Origin: a virus
Length of the DNA: 53,108 nucleotides
Reading direction: 5' to 3' (one strand)
Virus record (IMG/VR): IMGVR_UViG_3300000271_000005
Location: 1-53,108 of that record
Shown here: piece by piece, positions 1,532 to 49,850 of the stretch
How positions within the stretch are numbered: position 1 is the first letter of the stretch
Layout of the letters: each line of letters starts with the position of its first letter
The notes under the pieces: model-generated
Database searches by the model: none
The model's input: only the letters and a program-made list of their open reading frames with translations
Told to the model about the DNA's origin: nothing
Translations under genes and position numbers: made by a program

Positions 1532-1719
1532 GTGACTGCTTTGCGAAAAAGAATCAGCAGCGCATTGCAATCGGCGTATTTATCTTCTGATGAATGGCAG
1601 GCGTATGACGGGTTTGCAGGATCACACAGAGCATGATTACCACACGCATGGCGCGCATTTTTTTCTCCATATTTCTTCTGCTGATCCTACCTTTTTCCGC
1701 TCTCCCGTGCAATAATAGC

Positions 1720-1869
1720 TTAGTTTTTCACAGACGAATTGGGCGCGTACATTGTTAAAACTCGATCTATTCTCTTGCGCAGCTCCTTAATCTCTTCATG
1801 CATTTCATGCATTTTATCGTCTATTTCTTCGAGAAAATCGAAAACCTCATCGATCTTGGATGGAAACAT
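1720..1869 (-). CDS. Small coiled-coil protein (49 aa), below the ORF-track size cut-off
   Basis: Hand translation gives MFPSKIDEVFDFLEEIDDKMHEMHEEIKELRKRIDRVLTMYAPNSSVKN. A GGGAG lies about 9 nt upstream. Confidence 0.35.
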   Translation of the reverse strand: MFPSKIDEVFDFLEEIDDKMHEMHEEIKELRKRIDRVLTMYAPNSSVKN

Positions 1870-1919
1870 TCAGGGCTCCCAGCGTGCGCGGTTAATCATT
1901 TTTGGAAAGGGCTTGAAGA

Positions 1920-2411
1920 ATGATATCTGATTCGATTGACCTTTACAAAATTCCTGAGACTCTGATCTATCGCATTGCGCTGGAGACAGGCGTCGATGCC
2001 TTGCTAATTTCTGCGATCATCATCAAGGAAAGCGGCGGCAACCGCTGGGCTCAGCAGTATCAGCCGGGCTATCCATATCTGCACAAGGTCAATGAGTTCG
2101 CGCGATCGATCGGCTGTTCGTACGTGACCGAGCTGCACATGCAGAGGACGTCGTGGGGCATGATGCAGATCATGGGCGGCACGGCCCGCTTTCTCGGCTT
2201 CCGGGGATGGTTCGGAGAGCTCATGGAACCGGAAACCAATATTCGCTTCGGCGCGCGGCTGCTGTCGAACCTGCGGAAAACATATGGACTCGAGGCGGAC
2301 GTCATCTCTGCTTATAACCAGGGCCAGCCGTTCAAGACGCCGCAAGGCCGCTACAAAAATCAGGAGTACGTGGACGATATTTTGAAAATCAAGAGGAGGC
2401 TCAGGAAATGA
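1920..2411 (+). CDS. Lytic transglycosylase (SLT domain)
   Basis: Catalytic IIKESGGN, GMMQI and SAYNQG motifs typical of the goose-lysozyme-like SLT fold. Confidence 0.8.
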   Translation: MISDSIDLYKIPETLIYRIALETGVDALLISAIIIKESGGNRWAQQYQPGYPYLHKVNEFARSIGCSYVTELHMQRTSWGMMQIMGGTARFLGFRGWFGELMEPETNIRFGARLLSNLRKTYGLEADVISAYNQGQPFKTPQGRYKNQEYVDDILKIKRRLRK

Positions 2412-2626
2412 ACTACTGGCTGGACGTACTCGGATGGACGGGAACAGTGATTTTGTTTTTCAGCTATTTCATGAGCGAACGCAAGGCGCTCCATGCCGTC
2501 GCGCTTTTTGCCTGCGTCCTTAAAATGATATATAGCTATCATCACAACGTCTGGCCGCTGTTTACGAACTGGGTGATACTGATCCCTGTTCACATTCTTC
2601 AAATCATTAAGCTGAGGGCGAAATGA
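2408..2626 (+). CDS. Small two-TM membrane protein, holin-like candidate
   Basis: 72 aa with two hydrophobic helices. ATGA overlap with the SLT gene suggests translational coupling. Confidence 0.45.
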   Translation: MNYWLDVLGWTGTVILFFSYFMSERKALHAVALFACVLKMIYSYHHNVWPLFTNWVILIPVHILQIIKLRAK

Positions 2627-2847
2627 GGTTTCGCATGGCGCAATATCTTGTCATTGCCGCGGTGCTTGAAAAGCACGGCTACGAGGTCGTGCGCTCGATG
2701 GACCAAAAAACGATTTATGTGACGAGAAATAAAAATCCCTCCAGCGGCCGCGAGATCATTTCGATCTTCGACCGGGAGGGCATGCTAAGTTACCTCGATT
2801 ATATCGAACCTCAAGCCCTGAGGATGTGGAAAATTACCCTCGTTTAA
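2623..2847 (+). CDS. Hypothetical protein
   Basis: 74-aa ORF whose start overlaps the stop of the previous gene. No motif recognised. Confidence 0.4.
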   Translation: MRFRMAQYLVIAAVLEKHGYEVVRSMDQKTIYVTRNKNPSSGREIISIFDREGMLSYLDYIEPQALRMWKITLV

Positions 2848-3494
2848 TGCTGCTCCTGATCGCTCCCGCCTGCCGCTGGACTCGCGCACTTCATCGTAGG
2901 CCGCAGAACATTCGTTGCAAACCTGCCCAGGTAATTGCCGGGTGGGCTGTAGCGGCAAACGTGGAAAACTCCCTGTGGGCAGCTGGCAGAAGCGCAGCCA
3001 AGCTCACGCGTTTCTTTCCAAACCATTTGCGTAAAGTGCATGTAGCGGGTAGGCGGAGTGCTTACGCCGTAGGGATAATCCGTGCCCTCTCCAGCCCACA
3101 TGGCCATGGCTCCGGACGGTGTTAAGCGCGTGCCGATAGCCAGATTCTCGCCGAACTGTCCAGCGCCGTCGTCGTGACGAAACTGGCAGCGATTGGCCCA
3201 TGCCTGAGCCGACTCCGCAAGCTTTTGCGACCAGCCGAGTAGCGCGACGCCGTGGTCGCAGCGCAGCGCATTGTGCTCCTGGCTCCATACGTTTTTCGCG
3301 GGTTGCGGCGGCTTTTGAGCTGGCGGGGGGACAGGGACAGGCGCGGGCTTCGGCGCCGGAACAGGCACAGGAATGGGCACAGGATACTGCGGTCCTTGTT
3401 CCAGCGGAAGCGGCCATCCGGGATGCTTTTCCGAATTATGATCGTCGCTACAAGAAAAAACAGACAGAGACAAAAACAGCAATGCGAACCGCAT
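2844..3494 (-). CDS. Secreted CAP/SCP/PR-1 superfamily lipoprotein
   Basis: Lipobox LSVFSC, then a P/V-rich linker, then CAP motifs GENL, HFTQMVW and VCRYSPPGNY. Confidence 0.8.
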   Translation of the reverse strand: MRFALLFLSLSVFSCSDDHNSEKHPGWPLPLEQGPQYPVPIPVPVPAPKPAPVPVPPPAQKPPQPAKNVWSQEHNALRCDHGVALLGWSQKLAESAQAWANRCQFRHDDGAGQFGENLAIGTRLTPSGAMAMWAGEGTDYPYGVSTPPTRYMHFTQMVWKETRELGCASASCPQGVFHVCRYSPPGNYLGRFATNVLRPTMKCASPAAGGSDQEQH

Positions 3495-3594
3495 GCGCCC
3501 CTCCGGTTGATGACCAATCCTTTTTTTTCAGCCCTATCAATATGGGCTGTCGTATACTCGTTTTCAACAGTCAAAAATCAAAGGATGGTGTCTC

Positions 3595-5019
3595 ATGCGA
3601 ATGTTGCTAGGGATTTTTTTATCTCTCGTCTCCGCTTCGGCGTTTGGAAAAGTGGTTGAGGACGAATATATCGTCGTCCTTAAGCCCGGGGTCAGTCTCA
3701 ACTGGTATGCGGCCGATGCCGTCGTGCAGACGTTTCCCTCCATCAACGGGATGCTCGTGCGAACCGATAGCCCGGATGATTTTTCCGTTGATGAAGGTGT
3801 CGCTTACATCGAACCAAACTATGAGTTTGAGGTGCTCGGCAGCTGGGGCCTGGATCGGATCGACCAGCGCTCGGGCACCGATGGAAAATACACCTACAGC
3901 GCCACGGGTCAGGGCGTCACGGCCTACGTCATCGACACCGGTATCGCTCCGCACGCTGATTTCGGCGGGCGCCTTCTGCCTGGCTATTCAGGGCTCGGCG
4001 GTGACACCGTCGACTGCCACGGACACGGAACGCATGTCGCCGGGACAATCGGCGGCACCGAGTTCGGGGTTGCCAAGAAAGTCTCGCTCGTCCCTGTGAA
4101 AGTGCTCGACTGCCAGGGGTCAGGAACCAGCGCCAGCGTGCTCGCAGGTATCGAATGGGTTACAGCGAACGCGAAGCTCCCGGCCGTCGCAAACATGTCG
4201 CTCGGCTCTCCGAAGTCGCAGGCTGTAAACGACGCCGTGACGAGGGCTATCCAGCGCGGGGTCGTGTTCGCTGTGGCTGCAGGCAACAGCTCGGACGACG
4301 CCTGTAACTACTCCCCAGCCAGCACCCCGGCTGCTATCACCGCGGCCGCGAGCGATAACGGAGACAACCAGGCCTCGTTCAGTAGCTTCGGCCGCTGCGT
4401 GGACGTGTACGCTCCCGGCGTCAATATCATGTCCGACGCGCCGGGGGGTGGATCTCAAAGCATGTCCGGTACGAGTATGGCATCGCCGCACGTCGCTGGA
4501 GCCGTCGCCCTTCTCCTGGAGAAAAACCCAGGCTCGTCGCCCGCTCAGATCGCAGGTCTGCTCACGAGCAATGCGACCCAGGGGGCTATCAGAAACCCCG
4601 GCGCTGGTACGCCGAACCTTCTGATCTATACGAACCCAGGCGCAGCGCAGCCCGCTCCAGGACCGGGGCCGAAGCCAGACCCAGAGACACCCGCGGCGTG
4701 CGCCGATCCTCGCATGTGCCTTAAGCTGACCGGATCTCTCGACAAGCAAAAGTCCTACATGCAGGTGCCGGTCGGCGACTATGTAGTCGTGAACTATGCG
4801 CGGCCGATTGAGATCTTCGTGAAGGGGACGACCGACTTCGATATCCAGCTCTTCGTAAGCTCAGACGGCAAGACCTGGAAGACGGCGGCGAAGTCCACCG
4901 CAGCTGGCCAGGCGGAAACTCTGCGATATCAGGCGACCGAAAATGGTTTTTATTCGTGGATGATTTTCCTCAAAAACCCAGACGCTCCCGGCAAATTCGA
5001 GCAGTGGTTCGTCCGCTAA
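3595..5019 (+). CDS. Secreted subtilisin-like serine protease (S8, proteinase-K-like) with I9 propeptide and C-terminal PPC-like domain
   Basis: Signal peptide, YIVVLK propeptide, triad motifs YVIDTGI, HGHGTHVAGT and GTSMASPHVAG, oxyanion AAGN. Confidence 0.9.
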   Translation: MRMLLGIFLSLVSASAFGKVVEDEYIVVLKPGVSLNWYAADAVVQTFPSINGMLVRTDSPDDFSVDEGVAYIEPNYEFEVLGSWGLDRIDQRSGTDGKYTYSATGQGVTAYVIDTGIAPHADFGGRLLPGYSGLGGDTVDCHGHGTHVAGTIGGTEFGVAKKVSLVPVKVLDCQGSGTSASVLAGIEWVTANAKLPAVANMSLGSPKSQAVNDAVTRAIQRGVVFAVAAGNSSDDACNYSPASTPAAITAAASDNGDNQASFSSFGRCVDVYAPGVNIMSDAPGGGSQSMSGTSMASPHVAGAVALLLEKNPGSSPAQIAGLLTSNATQGAIRNPGAGTPNLLIYTNPGAAQPAPGPGPKPDPETPAACADPRMCLKLTGSLDKQKSYMQVPVGDYVVVNYARPIEIFVKGTTDFDIQLFVSSDGKTWKTAAKSTAAGQAETLRYQATENGFYSWMIFLKNPDAPGKFEQWFVR

Positions 5020-9354: not shown

Positions 9355-10188
9355 ATGACTGATGGCGATCGAAAACGAACGCACACGTCTTATAAGGCGA
9401 TGCTGGAGAGATGCAACGATTGGAAATCAAAGTCGTACCAGTATTATGGCGATAGAGGGATCGCCGTATGCGAAAGATGGCGAACCAGCTTCTCGGCCTT
9501 TGTTGCTGACATGGGTCTAAGGCCGGCGGGCAGAACATTGGATCGAATCGATAACACCAAAGGCTACGAGCCAGGGAACTGCAGATGGTCAACGTGGTCG
9601 GAACAGGCAAATAATCGGACGAATAATATCCCGGAAGACGTGAAGGCGCAGGTTATCGAGCTGAGAAAGGAAGGGTATTCATACGAGTTAATCTCCAAGA
9701 TGGCTCCTGTTTCCAGGGGGGCAGCACACCTCATCATTCGCGCTTTAGGCTGCGATCCTCTTACAATCAGAAAGCCGCCCGAGCTTGGCCGGCGGGAGTC
9801 AAAGTGGAAGCAGAAAATCATCGCATTAAGATCCGAAGGATACAGCTTCGAGGTTATTGCCCGTATGACGGGTGTCTCTCGCGGAAAGGCCTGCAAGATC
9901 ATCCGCGAGCTGGATCAAGATCCTCTGACAGAGAGAAAACCCGCCCCACCGGAAATTGACCTCAGGCGCGTATATCGCAAGGACAAAGGGATAAAGCCCT
10001 GGACGAGTCGCGAGGCGCGGCGTCTCAGAGAGCTTGGGTATTCGTTTCGGCGTATTGCCGAGCGGCTGAAGATAACAGAGGGCGTGGCAAGAGGGGTCAT
10101 CCGAAAGCTCGGTATTGACCCCATAGTAAAGCCGACGTGGAAAGGTTTGACCAAGGAGCTGATGGCAGATCATCATGCCGAGCCTTGA
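9355..10188 (+). CDS. DNA-binding protein: N-terminal YYGxRGI/LDRIDN..GYEPGNCRW module plus three tandem HTH repeats
   Basis: AAGGAAGGA SD. Three 45-47 aa repeats, each of the form L(R)xEGYS(Y/F)..I(A)..(V/I)(S/T).G....IR.LG.DP. Confidence 0.7.
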   Translation: MTDGDRKRTHTSYKAMLERCNDWKSKSYQYYGDRGIAVCERWRTSFSAFVADMGLRPAGRTLDRIDNTKGYEPGNCRWSTWSEQANNRTNNIPEDVKAQVIELRKEGYSYELISKMAPVSRGAAHLIIRALGCDPLTIRKPPELGRRESKWKQKIIALRSEGYSFEVIARMTGVSRGKACKIIRELDQDPLTERKPAPPEIDLRRVYRKDKGIKPWTSREARRLRELGYSFRRIAERLKITEGVARGVIRKLGIDPIVKPTWKGLTKELMADHHAEP

Positions 10189-43426: not shown

Positions 43427-45736
43427 TTAGTGCTGCGGTTGATCCAATAAACCATACTCCGAACGAAGCGGCGAGGGAACCGACTCGTGTATGCGGAAGT
43501 TGGAGGTCGGGGGGAAGATCTTATAGACGGCGTAGCCTGCGGCATCGGTCGCGTGGGTTCTCAGATAATCGCCGCCGTCCGATAGCTTGCCCCGTCCCGA
43601 CTGGGTGTTTTGCTTCCAGCCCACGACCTTGGTGTCGTCGTGAAAGTGGGGGCAGCTGCTCGGGTTATACGTCATTCGCACTTCTCCGAGGGAGTTTTTG
43701 AACATCACGTTCATCTGCTCGACGCGGTTTCTGACCTTTGGGTTCTGGGCTTCTTCGCCCTGGAAGTAGTCGATCGAATAGCTGACGCTGGCTTTCTGAA
43801 AGACCGAGGCTATCTGATCGTAATCTGTGATGCCTGCGTTACTTGTCGTTCCCACCCCGCCCGAGCAGTCGCCGTAGACGCGATAAAAAAACTCGGGGAA
43901 ACGGTTGAGGAGGATCATGGTCATGCCTGTGGAGGACATTTCCGGCTCTGCGATCTCGCCAAACCAGTGGATCATCGAGCCCCAGTGCTCGCCCTTCGGT
44001 CCGAACATGTTAGGGCCACACTGACCTATCATCCAGATACACGGGGCTGGGCTGAAGTTGAAGTCACAGCCGATGATCAGGGGCCTCTCGCGATTGGGAG
44101 CCGCGTCTCCCCATGGGGCTCGGCCGCGCTGGTTGTGACTGCCGGCTGCGTAATAGGCTCTTCCACCCAGGACGTTGACGTGCTGAGCCTCGAGTTCCTG
44201 GGCGGCGTAGAGCGGGGAGAATGATCTGGCCATCGAGTCGTAGTATTCCTGGCTGATGATCCCAGCCTTTACCGACTCGATTGTCTTGACGTGCATACTG
44301 CCGTAGAGGTAGTCGTTGCGCCTGGCCCCCTTCACAAAGCGCTGATATGACCAGTCCTCGCCGTTCGTCGTCGTCGTGATCAGCCCACGCATGTAGTCCG
44401 ACTCTCTTAAACGGCTCAAAACCACCTTATGAGTGTCATCAGGGGTGTCGCGGGTCTCATCGAGCCAGTACCACGATATCTCAATACCCCTCAAAGCATC
44501 GGCATCGGAGAGAATTCGGACGAAAGCGTGGGAAACTTTCCCGTTTCTCGGGTTCCTCACACTTAATATGTTCCGGTAGGTCTTGAACTTCCGGCCGACC
44601 CCCCAGGAGTCAGGCGGCAGCCGGTCGACGACGTATTCCAGCCCGTAGGCGTCGAGCCAATAGAACAGCTCTCGGAGCGTGGCCTGCGATAGCTGATCGT
44701 GATTATTGGCTGCGACGAGGCCCATGAGGTGCGGGTAATTGATGAAGTGAAAGACGGCGAACTGCGATCCGGTAAACGTCTTGCCGCAATTATGATGGAC
44801 TGCCCCCTCGGCCAGATAATTTTCGGTTCCCGGTATATGGACATCCCAAAATTCTTGTTCCTCATGCAACACCGCGATAGAAACTATCCTGGAGTAGCAT
44901 AAGGAGTATTTGCATGCGTAAGGCGAGGGAAAAGAGACGGGTTCATGATCGCCAGCCCATTCGAGATCTAGCGGACGGCACGCGCTCTTCTGCTGAAATA
45001 GCGGCATTGACGGGATATTCAGCGAAGTTTGTCCAGGAGGTCCTGCTTCATGAAGACCTTCCGAGGCTGCCTCGCAATTCCCCGCACGGCGCCCGTAACG
45101 CGGCTTATCGAGGTGGAGGAACTGTCGATAGGGACGGCTATGTTTTGATGGCTGCCCGCTGGCATCCGCACTGCCGCAAGACTGGGATGATATATGCTCA
45201 TCGACTTGTTTACGAACTTGCAAACGGAGTTGTCTTATCCAAGGCTCAGGTAATAGACCACATCGATGGTCTAAAGCAGAATAACTTCCCGTCGAACCTT
45301 CGTATTTTTGAAAAGAACTCTGATCACTTGAAGCAAACCCTTGCAGGCCAAGTCCCGCGCTGGTCCATGCTCGGTTGGAAGAAAATGAATACAGGACATC
45401 GCCAACGGAAAGATCAGCCGCATATTCATAGCTACCGCCTTTTAAAGCAATCAGGTGCCGTTCGTGAGCAACAAACGAGCCTCGCTCGTGCTCAATTCGG
45501 AGAAGCCGGGCTCGACCTTTTACGAAAGGTTTTTCACACGGAACTAGGACTAGACCTTGAGTTCCTACAGAAACAACCAGATCGTTTTCTTGAAGTTTGG
45601 AAATTTCGCACGGGCCACGAGCTGTCTCAATAAGGGTATTGGCCGCAACGCAGGCAACCCCCGCAAACATCGCAAAATGCATATAGGGGTTATAAAGGGC
45701 AGCCATCTGCCATGGGGCGAGCGTGACTGCCGGCAT
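43427..45736 (-). CDS. terL: Terminase large subunit interrupted by a 288-aa intein in the Walker A loop
   Basis: The spliced extein reads ..MFAGVA/CGKTFTG.. (P-loop). Walker B is YWLDETRD. The nuclease-domain motif is IIGCDFNF. Confidence 0.9.
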   Translation of the reverse strand: MPAVTLAPWQMAALYNPYMHFAMFAGVACVAANTLIETARGPCEISKLQENDLVVSVGTQGLVLVPCEKPFVKGRARLLRIEHERGSFVAHERHLIALKGGSYEYAADLSVGDVLYSFSSNRAWTSAGLGLQGFASSDQSSFQKYEGSTGSYSALDHRCGLLPEPWIRQLRLQVRKQVDEHISSQSCGSADASGQPSKHSRPYRQFLHLDKPRYGRRAGNCEAASEGLHEAGPPGQTSLNIPSMPLFQQKSACRPLDLEWAGDHEPVSFPSPYACKYSLCYSRIVSIAVLHEEQEFWDVHIPGTENYLAEGAVHHNCGKTFTGSQFAVFHFINYPHLMGLVAANNHDQLSQATLRELFYWLDAYGLEYVVDRLPPDSWGVGRKFKTYRNILSVRNPRNGKVSHAFVRILSDADALRGIEISWYWLDETRDTPDDTHKVVLSRLRESDYMRGLITTTTNGEDWSYQRFVKGARRNDYLYGSMHVKTIESVKAGIISQEYYDSMARSFSPLYAAQELEAQHVNVLGGRAYYAAGSHNQRGRAPWGDAAPNRERPLIIGCDFNFSPAPCIWMIGQCGPNMFGPKGEHWGSMIHWFGEIAEPEMSSTGMTMILLNRFPEFFYRVYGDCSGGVGTTSNAGITDYDQIASVFQKASVSYSIDYFQGEEAQNPKVRNRVEQMNVMFKNSLGEVRMTYNPSSCPHFHDDTKVVGWKQNTQSGRGKLSDGGDYLRTHATDAAGYAVYKIFPPTSNFRIHESVPSPLRSEYGLLDQPQH
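44789..45652 (-). mobile_element. Intein (Cys29-Asn316 of TerL; +1 residue Cys) with no in-frame endonuclease domain
   Basis: Block A is CVAANTLIET, block B region is FVAHERHLIAL, blocks F/G are FWDVHIPGTENYLAEGAVHHN followed by C. Residues about 121-282 are a low-complexity linker. Confidence 0.85.
44914..45633 (+). CDS. HTH + HNH (HNH_3-type) homing endonuclease gene nested antisense inside the TerL intein
   Basis: AAGGAG SD 8 nt before the ATG. Motif GYVLMA..HPH...YAHRLVYELANGVVLSKAQVIDHIDGLKQNNFPSNLRI. The C-terminal roughly 85 aa lie opposite the Hint N-domain and may be non-domain tail. Confidence 0.75.
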   Translation: MRKAREKRRVHDRQPIRDLADGTRSSAEIAALTGYSAKFVQEVLLHEDLPRLPRNSPHGARNAAYRGGGTVDRDGYVLMAARWHPHCRKTGMIYAHRLVYELANGVVLSKAQVIDHIDGLKQNNFPSNLRIFEKNSDHLKQTLAGQVPRWSMLGWKKMNTGHRQRKDQPHIHSYRLLKQSGAVREQQTSLARAQFGEAGLDLLRKVFHTELGLDLEFLQKQPDRFLEVWKFRTGHELSQ

Positions 45737-46462
45737 TTACGTCGTCTCCAGTCCGTCCCCCGATGCGTCGATGATCTCGCCCCCGGGCACGTCATAGTAT
45801 TGCTTCATCATTTTTTGCATCGCCTTATCGTCGAGCTTTTCACCACCGATTAGCTGAACTGTCCACTGCTGGTCTTCCATTTTCGGCGCCTCGAACTGCT
45901 TCGGATCGGTAAAGCTCTCGGCTACCTTCATGTTCCAGCCGTCGATCATCAGGGCCTTGTGCCGCGCTTCCGTGACGAGCTTGAGACCCGAGGCGATGTT
46001 TCGTAGCTCGGCAGTTTGTATCTTGGCGAATTCGGACTCGAACTTTTCCCCGGTCTGATTCGCTCGGGCTTTGGCCTTTTCATCTTCGTTGATGACGTTG
46101 ATTATATCGTTGATGCGCTTTTTGAAGATTCCCATCATGGCGTCGGGCGCTTCGGGGTATTCCTTCAGCGTCTTCAGAACCTGCTCGTGCCACTTGCCGC
46201 GGTGTGAGAAGAGAGCTTCGGCGATGGATTCGGCCTGCTCCCTGGCGAGGATGTCGCGCTTTTCCTTTTGCCAGTCGGGAAACTCGTCGTAGCTGCGGGT
46301 GGACGGACGCCAGCCCATGCTCTTGGCCCACGTCGTCCATTCGAGATGTGGCGAGGCCATGAAGAGCTGTTTCGCTTGTTCGGGCGATATTTTTGGCTGA
46401 CGCGAGCCTTCCGGCCTGACGATCTGCAGGCGCGGCTGATCGCGTATTTCGTCATCGCTCAT
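45737..46462 (-). CDS. Terminase small subunit (by position)
   Basis: 241 aa. Its stop abuts the terL start. Confidence 0.5.
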   Translation of the reverse strand: MSDDEIRDQPRLQIVRPEGSRQPKISPEQAKQLFMASPHLEWTTWAKSMGWRPSTRSYDEFPDWQKEKRDILAREQAESIAEALFSHRGKWHEQVLKTLKEYPEAPDAMMGIFKKRINDIINVINEDEKAKARANQTGEKFESEFAKIQTAELRNIASGLKLVTEARHKALMIDGWNMKVAESFTDPKQFEAPKMEDQQWTVQLIGGEKLDDKAMQKMMKQYYDVPGGEIIDASGDGLETT

Positions 46463-46798: not shown

Positions 46799-47167
46799 TC
46801 AGGGGTAGAGGGGTTCGACGATCTCGAGCGCGCCGTCAAAAAGTATTTTCACGAGTCCCCTATCATCCCTGAAATCCACCTGAAACGACTGCTCGTCGCC
46901 AGCTTCGAGCAGAGCGGTCGACGAGGCTGGCAGGTCGATTTGCAGCTTGCCGAGGTCGGCCGACACGAGCGTCGCCGGTATGCTGATAATGGCGGCGTCC
47001 TCACCCTGGAAGTGTCCCGTGGCCCCCTGGAGCGTTTGAAACGAGGCGGGCTGACTGGTGCCCCTGTAAAGCATCTGCACGACGAGATATGTGTCCGAAT
47101 CCTTTACGATCGACGGGGTCAGACGGTCAGCGATCTCCCCGACAATTCCTCTGTTCAGGCAGCTCAT
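46799..47167 (-). CDS. Hypothetical protein (122 aa)
   Basis: Clean ORF with start-stop overlap with rusA. Confidence 0.55.
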   Translation of the reverse strand: MSCLNRGIVGEIADRLTPSIVKDSDTYLVVQMLYRGTSQPASFQTLQGATGHFQGEDAAIISIPATLVSADLGKLQIDLPASSTALLEAGDEQSFQVDFRDDRGLVKILFDGALEIVEPLYP

Positions 47168-47694
47168 TTATAAAACTCCACAATGTCGCCGAGGTTCACC
47201 ACATAGGTAAACGTCATGATTTTCGGGCCGATGATTTTGTAAGGATGATACTCCCAAAATCGACAATCGTTAACCCCTGTTGCGTGACCGATTGCGTCGT
47301 GCAGTGCTTTCTGTCGGTTGTCGACGTCCATGATTCGCACCTGCCGGCGCTTCGTGATCCAGTGGGGCGACTGATAAAAGACGATCCCCATAAGCACCCC
47401 GCGCGGGTTCCACGTCGTCGGGCCGATAGCGTTTTTCACTGCCTCGCGAAAGTGGAGGGCCTCCGGGCTCAGGCGACGCGAGCCTATTCTGAACCCCGGA
47501 AGATACATGTGGTTGACTGATGGAGGGAGGTATGGAACTGCGAACGACAGGATTTGAGATTTCGGCTTATTTGTCCTGGCCCAATCGAGAAGAATCTGGG
47601 CCGTGGGTGGAAAAGCGAAGCCCAAAGCTTGAACCGTCCTGACTCGAATTGCAAGGTCTTCCGTTACGTCCAGGGGTCGATTCCGCTTAGGCAT
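47164..47694 (-). CDS. rusA: RusA-family Holliday junction resolvase
   Basis: YLPPSVNHMY and MDVDNRQKALHDAI motifs. Confidence 0.8.
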   Translation of the reverse strand: MPKRNRPLDVTEDLAIRVRTVQALGFAFPPTAQILLDWARTNKPKSQILSFAVPYLPPSVNHMYLPGFRIGSRRLSPEALHFREAVKNAIGPTTWNPRGVLMGIVFYQSPHWITKRRQVRIMDVDNRQKALHDAIGHATGVNDCRFWEYHPYKIIGPKIMTFTYVVNLGDIVEFYK

Positions 47695-49850
47695 TCTATG
47701 ATTTTCCAGCGTTCGTGGTTCACGGCTCCGAGCGTCAGATTTTGACTGATGAATTCGCGCGATCTGCCGACGAGATTGCTGCGATTCACGCCACCCTCAA
47801 GCAGCATCGAGAGCTTTTGCCGAAAGTCCTCCTGATCGCGGTACAGGATCACGCCTGGCCGTCGCCACTCGTCCCAGTCGGGGGCAAGGCAAACGGCGCC
47901 GGCGTGGGAGGCCTCGATCCAGGCGATGTTGCTGTTATGTGATACGATTCCATTTGCTATATAAAAATTTCCGTCTGGAACTTCTATGTCATATACATCG
48001 GATCTCAGACTTTCTTTTGATGAGACTTTTGCAGTCCACTCCCATTCTTTATAAGCGTTGCTATGTTTCTTTTCGCAGATACGATTCAATTTTTCTGTTT
48101 TTTCTCTGCTTATGAAGCCTATTTCTTTATTGAATATATCGCAACCCTGTCTTCCAAACCCTATTTTGTAATAGTATTTTCTATATGTCTGATTAAACTG
48201 CCTGCTGATTTTGCTTTTTATTCCGAAACCTAGCAAAAGAATCTGAGCTTCTTTAGCAAGAGATTCCTGTTTAGTTGATAGGTAAACGCTGGTGTCGCCA
48301 ACAGTTGCATCAGTATCGAATAGTCCCCTAAGAAAAGAGGCAACAACTTTTTTAGGAGATTTCCAAATTACTTTTGGAACCATTAAAGTTTTGTTTCTCA
48401 CCCCTATAAACCCGACGCTTTCAGCAAGAAACTGACGGAGAATCACGCTATTGATATATATGTCGAATCCTTTTCCTGGTTTTTTAACCTCGGTTACTCC
48501 AAGTCCAAGACTTGAAGCAAACCCTCTGACTTTTTCGATCATATCGACGTGCTCTATAGACATAGCTACACCTATGCGGTTGTAGGCGTTCATAGTTCCG
48601 TCTCCTAGCATGATCCCAATAAATTCAGCCCATCTTTCGTTAATAAAAATCTGTGGATGCATTTCATTATTTAGGTCAATTTCGTGAATCGTATTTTTTC
48701 TATTGTTTTGCTGCTTGAATCCCCTCATGGGCAGGGTTTGAATTTTTGATCCAAACTCGATTGGAGAAATGTCGATTTCATCTCCAGCAGATATTTGATC
48801 AATGGATTTCCATTGCCCATTGCTTCTAATTTTATGATGAGGCGTTCCAGATATCTCATAACCATCTTCAGTAACAATTCTCATTACCGGTTGATCTTCG
48901 TACTTGTATGTCGTAACAACGTCTGCCCATTTATCCTCGCGCCATACTTGATCACCGATTTTTATATCCTCAATTGCAATTAGACCTTTCCCGTTGACTG
49001 GAACTAGAGTTCCAGGAACGAGACACTTGCTGCGGTTGAACTCGTCGCCCAGGAGCGGCACGAAAACGACGGCGGGCTTTACGCGGTGCAGGAAGTGGAA
49101 ATACTCGATCGGGTCTAGCGGCGGCGTGACGATCGTCCTTTCGGACGGAATGCCGGCGTCCTCCAGCGCCTTTAGCGTTCCCCACCAGGGACTGCCGACG
49201 AAGTTCAGCGTCCATTTTTCACCGTCTGCCTTGAATGCATCTCTGAGCGGGTCCGTATACACAGCGAGGTCGGCGTCGTGGGTATTCGACCCGCGCCAGA
49301 GGGCGCAAAGGTTTGCGTCCGGCGGGGGCTTCGTCCAGCTGCGATGCGAGTAGGCGAACAGCTTTTCGTCGTAGGCGTTGGGGATAAGGACGATCTTGTC
49401 AGGGCTCAGGAACCGGCGCGGCAGATCCGTTTTTGCAGCTGCGAAGCGTTCGATTATTTTTTCGAGCTTCGTTTTCAGCGCAACCGTGGACACCGAGACG
49501 ATGTCGGCCTGCGCGATGAGCGAGGTCAGGTTATTTTGGATTTGCTTCGGGCTATAAAATTTATGGGCTGGATTTTGAAACGGCACCGAATAGAGGTCGT
49601 CGTCGTAGTCGATCCAGATGGGCTTGCCCTGCAGCTTGCAGAACGACATGACGCGGACGTGATCTGCGGTGTACGGCCGCTGCATGAAGACGGCGTTAAC
49701 GCCCCGGAGGTAGACCCAGTTTATCGTTCCGCCCATTTCAAGCCGGATATCCCGCGGACGCTCCTGCTCCATGGCCTGCAGCGGCCCGCCTGCCCTATAA
49801 AAACTCGTTCCATCGGTCACATTAGGGATTACACAGCCCAGCCGAAACAT
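47664..49850 (-). CDS. Glycosyltransferase (GT-B-like) interrupted by a 364-aa LAGLIDADG intein
   Basis: The extein joins ..GDEFNRSK/SNIAWIEASHAGAV.. The N-terminal and C-terminal halves look like Rossmann-type GT domains. Confidence 0.7.
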   Translation of the reverse strand: MFRLGCVIPNVTDGTSFYRAGGPLQAMEQERPRDIRLEMGGTINWVYLRGVNAVFMQRPYTADHVRVMSFCKLQGKPIWIDYDDDLYSVPFQNPAHKFYSPKQIQNNLTSLIAQADIVSVSTVALKTKLEKIIERFAAAKTDLPRRFLSPDKIVLIPNAYDEKLFAYSHRSWTKPPPDANLCALWRGSNTHDADLAVYTDPLRDAFKADGEKWTLNFVGSPWWGTLKALEDAGIPSERTIVTPPLDPIEYFHFLHRVKPAVVFVPLLGDEFNRSKCLVPGTLVPVNGKGLIAIEDIKIGDQVWREDKWADVVTTYKYEDQPVMRIVTEDGYEISGTPHHKIRSNGQWKSIDQISAGDEIDISPIEFGSKIQTLPMRGFKQQNNRKNTIHEIDLNNEMHPQIFINERWAEFIGIMLGDGTMNAYNRIGVAMSIEHVDMIEKVRGFASSLGLGVTEVKKPGKGFDIYINSVILRQFLAESVGFIGVRNKTLMVPKVIWKSPKKVVASFLRGLFDTDATVGDTSVYLSTKQESLAKEAQILLLGFGIKSKISRQFNQTYRKYYYKIGFGRQGCDIFNKEIGFISREKTEKLNRICEKKHSNAYKEWEWTAKVSSKESLRSDVYDIEVPDGNFYIANGIVSHNSNIAWIEASHAGAVCLAPDWDEWRRPGVILYRDQEDFRQKLSMLLEGGVNRSNLVGRSREFISQNLTLGAVNHERWKIIECLSGIDPWT
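47934..49025 (-). mobile_element. Intein with in-frame LAGLIDADG homing endonuclease (Cys276-Asn639; +1 residue Ser)
   Basis: Block A is CLVPGTLV, LAGLIDADG motifs are FIGIMLGDGT and FLRGLFDTDATV, blocks F/G are VYDIEVPDGNFYIANGIVSHN followed by S. Strikingly AT-rich compared with the exteins. Confidence 0.9.

Follow-up and report, generated by a model that had tools for sequence, protein, structure and literature searches.

The locus described here raises the question of whether an intein and its homing endonuclease can be encoded on opposite strands of the same DNA, with both reading frames being kept open by selection. The locus lies in a stretch of 53,108 nucleotides (nt) from a virus (IMG/VR virus record IMGVR_UViG_3300000271_000005, positions 1 to 53,108; this whole stretch is referred to as the window), in which the minus-strand gene for the large subunit of the terminase (TerL) is interrupted by an intein, and an open reading frame (ORF) for an HNH protein runs antisense within the intein. 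The analyses presented below indicate that this is very probably a composite selfish element, made up of a class-1 intein and a separately translated, antisense HNH homing endonuclease. A contiguous intein with a separate endonuclease gene on the opposite strand had been proposed in the initial annotation of this DNA, and the proposal is now sustained by frame-specific ratios of non-synonymous to synonymous substitution rates (dN/dS), by counts of differences at the three codon positions, and by 90 further loci.

The initial annotation had placed a 288-codon intein in the Walker A motif of TerL at 44789-45652, and a plus-strand ORF of 239 amino acids (aa) with an AAGGAG Shine-Dalgarno sequence wholly within the intein at 44914-45633; translation recovered the coordinates of the former exactly, and the latter was reproduced from the sequence. 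The insertion comprises TerL residues 29-316 and splits Walker A as ..FAGVA/CVAANTLIET...FWDVHIPGTENYLAEGAVHHN/CGKT.. (here and below, slashes mark the junctions). The C-terminal 453 residues of the TerL ORF match terminase large subunits (Terminase_6N, 1.6e-7; phrog_2, 4.7e-19), and a search with the spliced TerL sequence as query returned 390 homologues. The C-extein of the window is 83-90% identical to the C-exteins of its closest intein-bearing relative, L003, and of the intein-free allele P0038, and the N-extein is colinear with P0038, which reads ..WGGVAVGKT.. Inspection of the ORFs also confirmed that the HNH core (aa 72-143) lies opposite the part of the intein that had been termed filler (intein codons ~103-175), and that the TerL frame is without a stop over the intein. 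The C-terminal splicing domain overlaps the 5' untranslated region and the ribosome-binding site of the HNH gene.

The N- and C-terminal splicing blocks, which had been called clear by inspection, are supported by comparison with related inteins. The residues C1, H287 and N288 are invariant across 47 related inteins from other loci, and the +1 residue is C, S or T in 55 of 55 distinct loci; intein-free alleles carry Val or Ser at the +1 position. The Pfam family Intein_splicing is matched by 36 of the 47 related inteins (best E 9.3e-14), and a profile of all 47 matches the solved DnaB mini-inteins 4o1r (E 8.8e-16) and 1mi8 (E 5.3e-14). This match falls in two separate stretches, profile positions 14-92 and 257-295, which correspond to the N and C halves of the mini-inteins, and the gap between them is unmatched. 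No endonuclease family was matched in the intein frame of any of the 47 related inteins, in keeping with the earlier remark that LAGLIDADG, HNH and GIY-YIG motifs are absent from the intein centre. The central linker has no match in Pfam or the PDB, and it is unalignable among relatives. In an AlphaFold2 (AF2) model of the TerL precursor the C-extein has high confidence, and both HINT halves are modelled as beta structure. An Rfam scan of 44500-45900 on both strands at E<=1 returned no family, group I and group II introns included. Altogether, these data indicate that the insertion is a class-1 intein in the Walker A motif of TerL, and one that is predicted to splice.

The plus-strand ORF matches Pfam HNH_3 with 36.8 bits (cutoff 24.8, E 2.9e-9) and phrog_10730, annotated 'HNH endonuclease', with E 4.6e-33 over positions 16-210 of 234. 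Matches were obtained to 17 PHROG families, 15 of which are annotated as HNH endonuclease, and an exhaustive profile search collected 338 clusters (50% identity) of HNH relatives at E<=1e-30; neither frame matched a LAGLIDADG or Vsr family. The textbook HNH_3 core that had been described initially is borne out by the profile score, which lies above the cutoff, and by the catalytic-motif residues, with H96, R97, H116, D118, N124, N128, N135 and H138 being invariant in 36 homologues. An AF2 model of the HNH protein, produced from an alignment of 36 sequences, has a mean pLDDT score (predicted local distance difference test) of 78, and it contains strands and a helix at aa 77-143 (pLDDT 81-91) as well as C-terminal helices at aa 152-233 (pLDDT 72-84). 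The helix-turn-helix (HTH)-like segment previously noted at the N-terminus is modelled as a three-helix HTH at aa 14-46 (helices at aa 14-19, 26-33 and 37-46; pLDDT about 90), and at its N-terminus the HNH profile yields a weak match to a LuxR-type HTH (7r3g, E 0.072) together with one to a designed helical repeat (8vd6, E 6.3e-8). Furthermore, the HNH homologues carry precomputed HTH Pfam matches, and a PDB search with the single HNH sequence returned a designed HTH repeat only. These data indicate that the ORF encodes a putative HNH_3 endonuclease, predicted to cleave DNA, that has an HTH module, a catalytic core and a C-terminal helical domain.

The antisense phase that is used by TerL contains 0 stops across the HNH ORF, and the other two phases contain 14 and 10. 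When the HNH ORF was permuted synonymously, a check that had been suggested at the outset, the TerL phase had a mean of 6.3 stops and was stop-free in 5e-5 of the trials; with codons sampled from the codon usage of the window, the probability of a stop-free TerL phase was 1.25e-3. Synonymous permutation of the intein frame left the HNH frame open in 0 of 20,000 trials. Among 55 distinct related loci, native antisense stops number 0 in every case, against an expected median of ~7.5 (per-locus P0 <=0.034), and a control, the free-standing HNH gene at 9355-10188 of the window, has 11, 6 and 8 antisense stops in its three phases. These data demonstrate that both frames are kept open by selection, not by chance.

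The layout is not confined to the window. A tblastn search of phage genomes with the HNH protein found eight cultured Pectobacterium/Dickeya phages (Ymer, Abuela, Koroua, Amona, Sabo, Taid, Pappous and Setonix) at 42% identity, and Pseudoalteromonas phage PHS3 at 34% identity. In Amona (L001, PQ008971) a 754-aa TerL ORF at 2423-4687 contains CVHPHTK...IHHN/TGKS, and a 232-aa HNH ORF lies on the opposite strand at 2616-3314; in PHS3 (L002, KX912252) a 708-aa TerL ORF at 1688-3814 contains an intein, with a 236-aa HNH ORF in antisense. A further 77 loci came from scanning viral contigs; together with those of Amona and PHS3 they make 79, and 77 of these 79 have the HNH ORF on one strand and a long covering open frame on the other. 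The antisense phase is constant, codon position 1 being opposite position 1, and HHN[CST]GK[ST] is present in nearly all loci. Two candidates, L078 and L079, were rejected as members of the layout; both are ordinary free-standing HNH_3 genes with which only the core is shared. The same layout was also present in two Logan contigs (L083 and L084) and in 11 loci of bacterial genomes or metagenome-assembled genomes (MAGs), including those of Enterobacter pasteurii, Acinetobacter, Paracoccaceae and Marinobacter.

The layout was thereby found in 90 loci besides the window, and the host frame is contiguous and open through the insert in 91 of 91. The HNH ORF is intact, and not riddled with stops, in 89 of the 91 loci, down to ~32% identity. 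No split intein was found among the 91 loci. The suggestion that the layout could be an intermediate towards fractured genes was not upheld, as all 91 loci are contiguous and the partnership has been kept throughout the divergence of the HNH protein. The layout is widespread and old, and it is best read, from these comparisons, as a long-lived mobile intein-plus-endonuclease cassette. A fractured gene with a split intein was also considered as an explanation of the window itself and was rejected, the TerL frame being contiguous there and in the 90 other loci.

In three MAGs that are labelled as very distant lineages, Candidatus Peribacteria (L094), a Thermoplasmata archaeon (L095) and an actinobacterium (L091), the cassette is on short contigs, and these may be mis-binned phage contigs rather than a sign of wide host range. 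In the two Logan contigs, terL is followed not directly by a portal gene but by genes for an NAD-dependent epimerase and a dTDP-sugar isomerase (L083, 3819-5292; L084, 3971-5289), which constitute a sugar-modification module beside the packaging gene.

Existing annotations of these loci are incomplete. In the annotation of PHS3 the HNH gene is listed and TerL is truncated to the C-extein; in that of Amona the 754-aa precursor is a 'hypothetical protein' and the HNH gene is not listed. Gene callers often report either HNH or TerL and not both, and the intein-frame protein had one match only, a truncated TerL, in a database of 5.8 billion proteins, in which the intein frame is thus nearly absent; this constitutes a general annotation problem. 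A search of IMG/VR with the C-extein alone found no close TerL relatives, and one with an alignment as query found only two contigs that were already known.

Selection on the two frames was compared between the window and its closest relative, L003, whose intein has the same length and was aligned without gaps; the HNH protein of L003 is 89% identical to that of the window, and the C-extein 83%. In the centre of the intein (codons 101-246) of this one close pair, the HNH frame has 90% aa identity and a dN/dS of 0.05 (63.5 synonymous versus 20.5 non-synonymous changes), while the intein frame has 55% aa identity and an apparent dN/dS of 5.4. The relationship is reversed in the C-terminal splicing block, which is outside the HNH ORF and has an intein-frame dN/dS of 0.09. 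The comparison of dN/dS in both frames, which had been recommended as a check, separates the two frames in both regions. In the N-terminal splicing domain, which is opposite HNH aa ~160-239, dN/dS is about 0.5 in both frames with a low dS, and the two sequences agree at 92% of nucleotides, compared with 81% in the centre.

Counts of differences at intein codon positions 1/2/3, taken over many moderately close and non-independent pairs, gave the same division. The centre has 112/362/83 differences, the excess being at the wobble sites of the HNH frame, and the C-terminal block has 64/40/130, the excess being at the wobble sites of the intein; the N-terminal domain has 392/480/530, with no clear wobble position. 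These data indicate that three regimes follow one another along a single 864-bp element, with constraint on HNH only, on the intein only, and on both. Over the central ~146 codons, amino-acid constraint acts on the HNH frame only, and the intein frame is merely stop-free. The claim that both strands are under coding constraint needs to be qualified accordingly: it fits the N-terminal splicing domain, where both frames look constrained, and not the centre.

The N-terminal splicing domain (45353..45652) is a candidate for a true dual-coding stretch, as both of its frames look constrained. The HNH ORF crosses the whole of this domain in 46 of the 55 distinct loci, and those 46 ORFs end 4-46 nt from the first codon of the intein, or up to 47 nt past it. 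Synonymous permutation of the intein frame over this domain predicted ~2.2 stops in the HNH frame, with a median per-locus P0 of 0.05 and a value of 0.021 for the window. It is possible, and proposed here only tentatively, that ~85 codons at 45367-45612 encode two folded, functional domains on opposite strands, one being the N-terminal splicing domain and the other the helical domain at the C-terminus of the HNH protein, which may bind DNA, and that both have been maintained through divergence to ~35% identity and through moves between unrelated terminases. Six loci (L044, L057, L062, L072, L074 and L048) have a shorter antisense HNH of about 173-202 aa. In this short-HNH subfamily, a minority, the ORF stops 205-229 nt before the N-terminal end of the intein, and the tail opposite the N-terminal splicing domain is missing; the C-terminal tail is therefore not indispensable.

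The distribution of the cassette was examined next to that of its host genes. Every insertion is in Walker A at Gxxx/[CST]GK[ST], and the host genes differ, with TerL types that read ..GGFG/, ..GPVG/, ..GGRG/ and ..AGNQ/. In locus L048 (2798-3664, minus strand) the cassette is in a helicase-like, non-terminase P-loop gene, with the junction ..WCHN/TGLGKSF.., an apparent switch of host gene by way of the Walker A motif common to both. The HNH proteins have a median pairwise identity of 41% and the C-exteins one of 17%, and in the pair L072 and L074 the HNH proteins are 71% identical and the exteins only 14%. Divergence of the HNH protein is correlated with that of the splicing domains (rho 0.61-0.64), as would be expected if both travel together. 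Within the TerL clade of the window, intein-free alleles (P0038, 90% identity; P0039, 81%; P0041, 76%) and intein-bearing alleles (P0040, 84%; P0037, 83%; P0058, P0062 and P0066, 63%; P0134, 58%) interleave. These data demonstrate that the cassette is sporadic and has been transferred between unrelated host genes.

Traces that a homing cycle might leave were also observed. The extein of the window (45653-45736 and 44500-44788) was compared with positions 706-1000 of the intein-free contig L082, whose TerL allele is 90% identical, and in this one pair nucleotide identity is 95% over nt 0-60, 70-78% over nt 60-300 and 92-95% over nt 300-420, with the insertion point, nt 84 of the gene, inside the stretch of low identity. 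The stretch of low identity, ~240 nt long, may have arisen by co-conversion, or the target site may have diverged. Two internally deleted cassettes were found, one in L054 (2858-3475; intein of 206 aa, HNH ORF of 133 aa) and one in L077 (2254-2850; intein of 199 aa, HNH ORF of 155 aa), and in both the splicing blocks are intact; these copies look like decay towards mini-inteins, as the homing cycle predicts.

With respect to expression, Shine-Dalgarno cores are strongly enriched ahead of the HNH gene: if such cores are taken into account in assigning the start, 47 of 55 distinct loci have one 5-16 nt upstream, and if they are disregarded, 34 of 54 loci have one, against a background of 9.4% of positions. 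The HNH start is 116-149 nt in from the intein's C-terminus in most loci.

These results can be joined in the following scheme, in which splicing, antisense transcription, translation, cleavage specificity and homing are all predicted from sequence comparisons. TerL would be translated as a 769-aa precursor, in which the two HINT halves (intein codons 1-100 and 247-288) would fold around a ~146-residue unconserved linker, and the intein would then splice out, so that AGVA-CGKT is restored and a working packaging ATPase results. An antisense transcript with a ribosome-binding site of its own would give rise to the HNH protein. If the cell also contains an intein-free terL allele, on a co-infecting phage or a prophage, the HNH protein would cut or nick this allele near the P-loop codons, and recombinational repair would copy the intein and the HNH gene together into it. 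Because TerL is essential, any stop in the intein frame would be lethal, and the intein frame would therefore be held open throughout; because the cassette would spread only with a working endonuclease, the HNH frame would be subject to purifying selection.

However, it should be noted that several observations weigh against this interpretation. On its own, the window intein scores 27.9 bits against Pfam Intein_splicing, under the cutoff of 35.8, so that the profile search proposed for the intein frame gave only a weak match for the single sequence and a strong one (E 8.8e-16) for the family profile. Block B of the window intein is HERH, not the usual TxxH; relatives such as Amona have TEHH, and the window keeps the His with the Thr being replaced. 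Residues 117-279 of the precursor model, the linker, have pLDDT <50, with only five intein-bearing sequences in the alignment. The HNH profile matches I-HmuI (1u3e) weakly, at the HNH motif (E 0.15), and a Foldseek search of the HNH model against the PDB returned no significant global match, probably because the three modules are loosely packed. The HNH gene is antisense to a late operon, and a sigma-70 scan of 44500-46000 returned no promoter-like site; the promoter TTGTTC-n17-TAGAAA that had been proposed at 44855-44883 was thus not recovered. Finally, the dN/dS estimate comes from one close pair only, and the pairs behind the codon-position counts are not independent of each other.

Four other explanations of the locus were weighed. 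It is improbable that the HNH protein has been domesticated as a nuclease that cuts genome ends, as a nuclease directed at competitors, or as an antisense regulator of terL. Strong purifying selection and long persistence would fit any useful function, the HNH gene is physically within terL, and HNH proteins whose genes adjoin those of the terminase are known to take part in packaging (Kala et al. 2014, cited in PMC10694778). However, TerL relatives with 90%, 81% and 76% identity are without the whole cassette, which is dispensable to them, and the cassette occurs in unrelated TerL families and in the helicase-like gene. It is, moreover, far more conserved than its hosts (the medians of 41% versus 17%), and it has decayed in L054 and L077. 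Packaging helper HNH proteins are small and of a different kind from HNH_3, and the nuclease here is an HNH_3 protein with an HTH module. The specific candidate of a terminase-associated HNH packaging factor was rejected on these grounds, since close TerL relatives are without the insert and the gene is nested, antisense and of the HNH_3 family. No opposite-strand gene was called on the intein-free contig L082.

It is very unlikely that the insertion does not splice and is tolerated as a surface loop of TerL, with the HNH protein alone being functional. Walker A itself is split (GVA/../CGKT), and a loop of 288 residues at this point would be expected to prevent ATP from binding; all relatives have Cys1, His and Asn as the last two intein residues, and Cys, Ser or Thr at +1, the C-terminal splicing block is under purifying selection in the intein frame (dN/dS 0.09), and the family profile matches solved inteins (E 8.8e-16). 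The +1 position also differs between the two kinds of allele, with Val in intein-free alleles versus always a nucleophile in intein-bearing ones. These points are set against the low Pfam score of the window intein, its atypical block B (HERH), and the precedent of an out-of-frame HNH in a non-splicing, stop-free insertion (PMC11855218).

The third explanation, that the plus-strand ORF is a decaying relic or a chance frame within a mini-intein with a junk linker, is strongly disfavoured. No promoter was found, and gene callers often give only one of the two ORFs, as a relic might lead one to expect; yet the HNH-frame dN/dS of 0.05 (63.5 synonymous versus 20.5 non-synonymous changes), the invariant catalytic residues, the intact ORF in 89 of 91 loci down to 32% identity, the failure of all 20,000 permutations of the intein frame to leave the HNH frame open, and the enrichment of Shine-Dalgarno cores all contradict it. 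Least credible of all is that the insert is an intron of group I or II, excised from the RNA and bearing an endonuclease gene in antisense. Phage genes often carry group I introns with HNH genes, and antisense endonuclease genes occur in some nuclear group I introns, but the Rfam scan of 44500-45900, which covered both strands at E<=1, gave no family, no stop interrupts the host frame within the insert in any of the 91 loci, and the ends of the insert bear protein-level intein motifs under purifying selection.

The features of the composite element, the intein with its antisense endonuclease gene, are listed in Table 1.

Table 1. Features of the terL locus in the window, with strand and the basis of each assignment
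Feature	Position	Strand	Basis or remark
TerL precursor ORF (N-extein, intein and C-extein)	43427..45736	minus	769 codons and stop; Terminase_6N and phrog_2 matches
N-extein, 28 codons, ends in first half of Walker A (..FAGVA)	45653..45736	minus	translation
Intein, 288 codons, Cys1 (45652-45650) to Asn288 (44791-44789)	44789..45652	minus	junctions C1 and HHN/C
Intein N-terminal splicing domain, codons 1-100	45353..45652	minus	matched by mini-intein N halves (profile)
Intein central linker, codons 101-246	44915..45352	minus	opposite HNH N-terminal HTH and HNH core
Intein C-terminal splicing domain, codons 247-288, blocks F and G: FWDVHIPGTENYLAEGAVHHN	44789..44914	minus	matched by mini-intein C halves
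C-extein: +1 Cys and GKT of Walker A, then TerL ATPase and nuclease body	43427..44788	minus	translation
Putative HNH_3 endonuclease gene, 239 codons and TAA, ATG start, nested antisense in intein	44914..45633	plus	
Shine-Dalgarno AAGGAG, 7 nt upstream of HNH ATG	44901..44906	plus	sequence
Predicted HTH DNA-binding module, HNH protein aa 14-46	44953..45051	plus	AF2 and profile
HNH beta-beta-alpha metal catalytic core, aa 72-143	45127..45342	plus	Pfam HNH_3 at aa 94-135, conservation, AF2
HNH C-terminal helical domain, aa 152-233, opposite intein N-terminal splicing domain	45367..45612	plus	AF2

Between ~10.6 and 52.6 kb, nearly every gene of the window is encoded by the minus strand, and the nested HNH gene is among the few exceptions. 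The second HNH gene of the window, at 9355-10188 on the plus strand, encodes 277 aa, stands alone near the strand switch and matches phrog_3377 (8e-37), with weak HTH-type matches further along. Other genes in the window encode a 728-aa protein with a glycosyltransferase-like N-terminal region (47664-49850, minus strand), a RusA-like resolvase (47164-47694, minus strand) and a 474-aa protease-like protein (3595-5019, plus strand), and no tRNA genes were found in the window.

The layout of intein and antisense endonuclease can be ancient, stable and common, and need not be regarded as a rare accident: it is represented at ~90 loci, in several TerL families, in Enterobacter and Acinetobacter prophages, and in both marine and soil metagenomes. 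It bears on how inteins gain endonucleases, and in particular on the sequence of events in which splicing comes first and the nuclease invades later. With its cleanly separated selection regimes, the element lends itself to natural tests of dual coding in antisense. What sets it apart most is the possible dual coding of the N-terminal splicing domain and the C-terminal domain of the endonuclease; if it is real, this overlap of two structured domains on opposite strands would be unusual among natural cases for its age and its spread, and the endonuclease and the intein would be physically locked together, so that neither could be lost or replaced alone. The cassette is present in cultured and tractable phages (the Pectobacterium phages of the Ymer genus and Pseudoalteromonas phage PHS3), in which the proposed cycle is directly testable. 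The paper on the Ymer genus mentions neither an intein nor an HNH gene.

The initial annotation had assumed that intein endonucleases are in-frame domains, and this premise does not hold, as antisense cases have been published (bioRxiv 10.1101/2025.01.02.630785). An antisense LAGLIDADG endonuclease was described in the Synechocystis DnaX intein (Gorbalenya 1998 and Gogarten 2002, as cited in that preprint), and Gosselin, Arsenault and Gogarten reported in the same preprint antisense LAGLIDADG and antisense VSR-like endonucleases in actinophage inteins, many of them in TerL, for which the invasion of an intein by a free-standing endonuclease gene was proposed as the origin. Similar to the element described here, the actinophage inteins are contiguous, often in TerL, and have a stop-free host frame with an antisense endonuclease between the splicing blocks, and their horizontal transfer was inferred by the authors to continue. 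Dissimilar from them, the nuclease here is HNH_3 with an HTH module, HNH occurring there as an in-frame domain only; the hosts here are phages and prophages mostly of Gram-negative bacteria together with many metagenomic lineages; and the endonuclease ORF here usually spans the whole N-terminal splicing domain.

The cyanobacterial DnaX intein resembles the present element in having an endonuclease outside the intein frame, frame-dependent selection, a sporadic distribution and intein-free alleles. Over the overlap in this LAGLIDADG-bearing intein, the endonuclease frame has a low omega and the host frame one of >1, and secondary invasion of a mini-intein was proposed (Phillips et al., bioRxiv 10.64898/2026.09.14.751524); the frame of the endonuclease is called a '+2 ORF' in that 2026 preprint and anti-sense in the 2025 preprint. 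The DnaX intein differs in that its host, dnaX, is a cellular gene and its nuclease is of the LAGLIDADG family.

Fractured genes, in which a GIY-YIG or Vsr-like endonuclease gene lies between the halves of a split intein (Dassa et al. 2009, PMC2677866), had correctly been described as known in the initial annotation. They share with the present element a separately translated endonuclease of the free-standing type and an origin in phage or metagenomic DNA, including one terminase locus; however, two host ORFs are spliced in trans there, and here the host frame is contiguous in 91 loci and the HNH gene is antisense. The ShiLan insertion in a phage DNA methylase contains a hidden out-of-frame HNH (Arsenault et al. 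2025, PMC11855218) and is thereby another case of a phage gene whose stop-free insertion holds an HNH in a different frame, one that standard annotation overlooks. No splicing domain could be detected in ShiLan, and the HNH there is encoded by the same strand in another frame; here, clear intein blocks flank the insert and the HNH is antisense.

Inteins in the P-loop of mycobacteriophage TerL are disseminated horizontally among phages (Kelley et al. 2016, PMC5050341), and nothing on antisense genes or genes of the opposite strand was found in that paper. Their 'classic' site is GK/T or one residue away, and the site here is three residues upstream. The catalytic core family is shared with free-standing and intron-encoded HNH_3 proteins, including I-HmuI (1u3e), L078 and L079, the last two having 31-54% identity in the core; unlike the present gene, free-standing HNH_3 genes stand alone, have antisense frames full of stops, and carry other DNA-binding modules. 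The N-terminal HTH and the C-terminal helical tail set the intein-nested family apart. No antisense-encoded HNH within an intein was reported in the literature searched, in which subscription journals were not fully covered. Taken together, these comparisons show that inteins with antisense endonucleases are, as a general concept, already in the literature, and that the HNH_3 version is the part that seems to be new, with HNH_3 joining LAGLIDADG and VSR-like as the third nuclease family among the antisense-encoded endonucleases of inteins.

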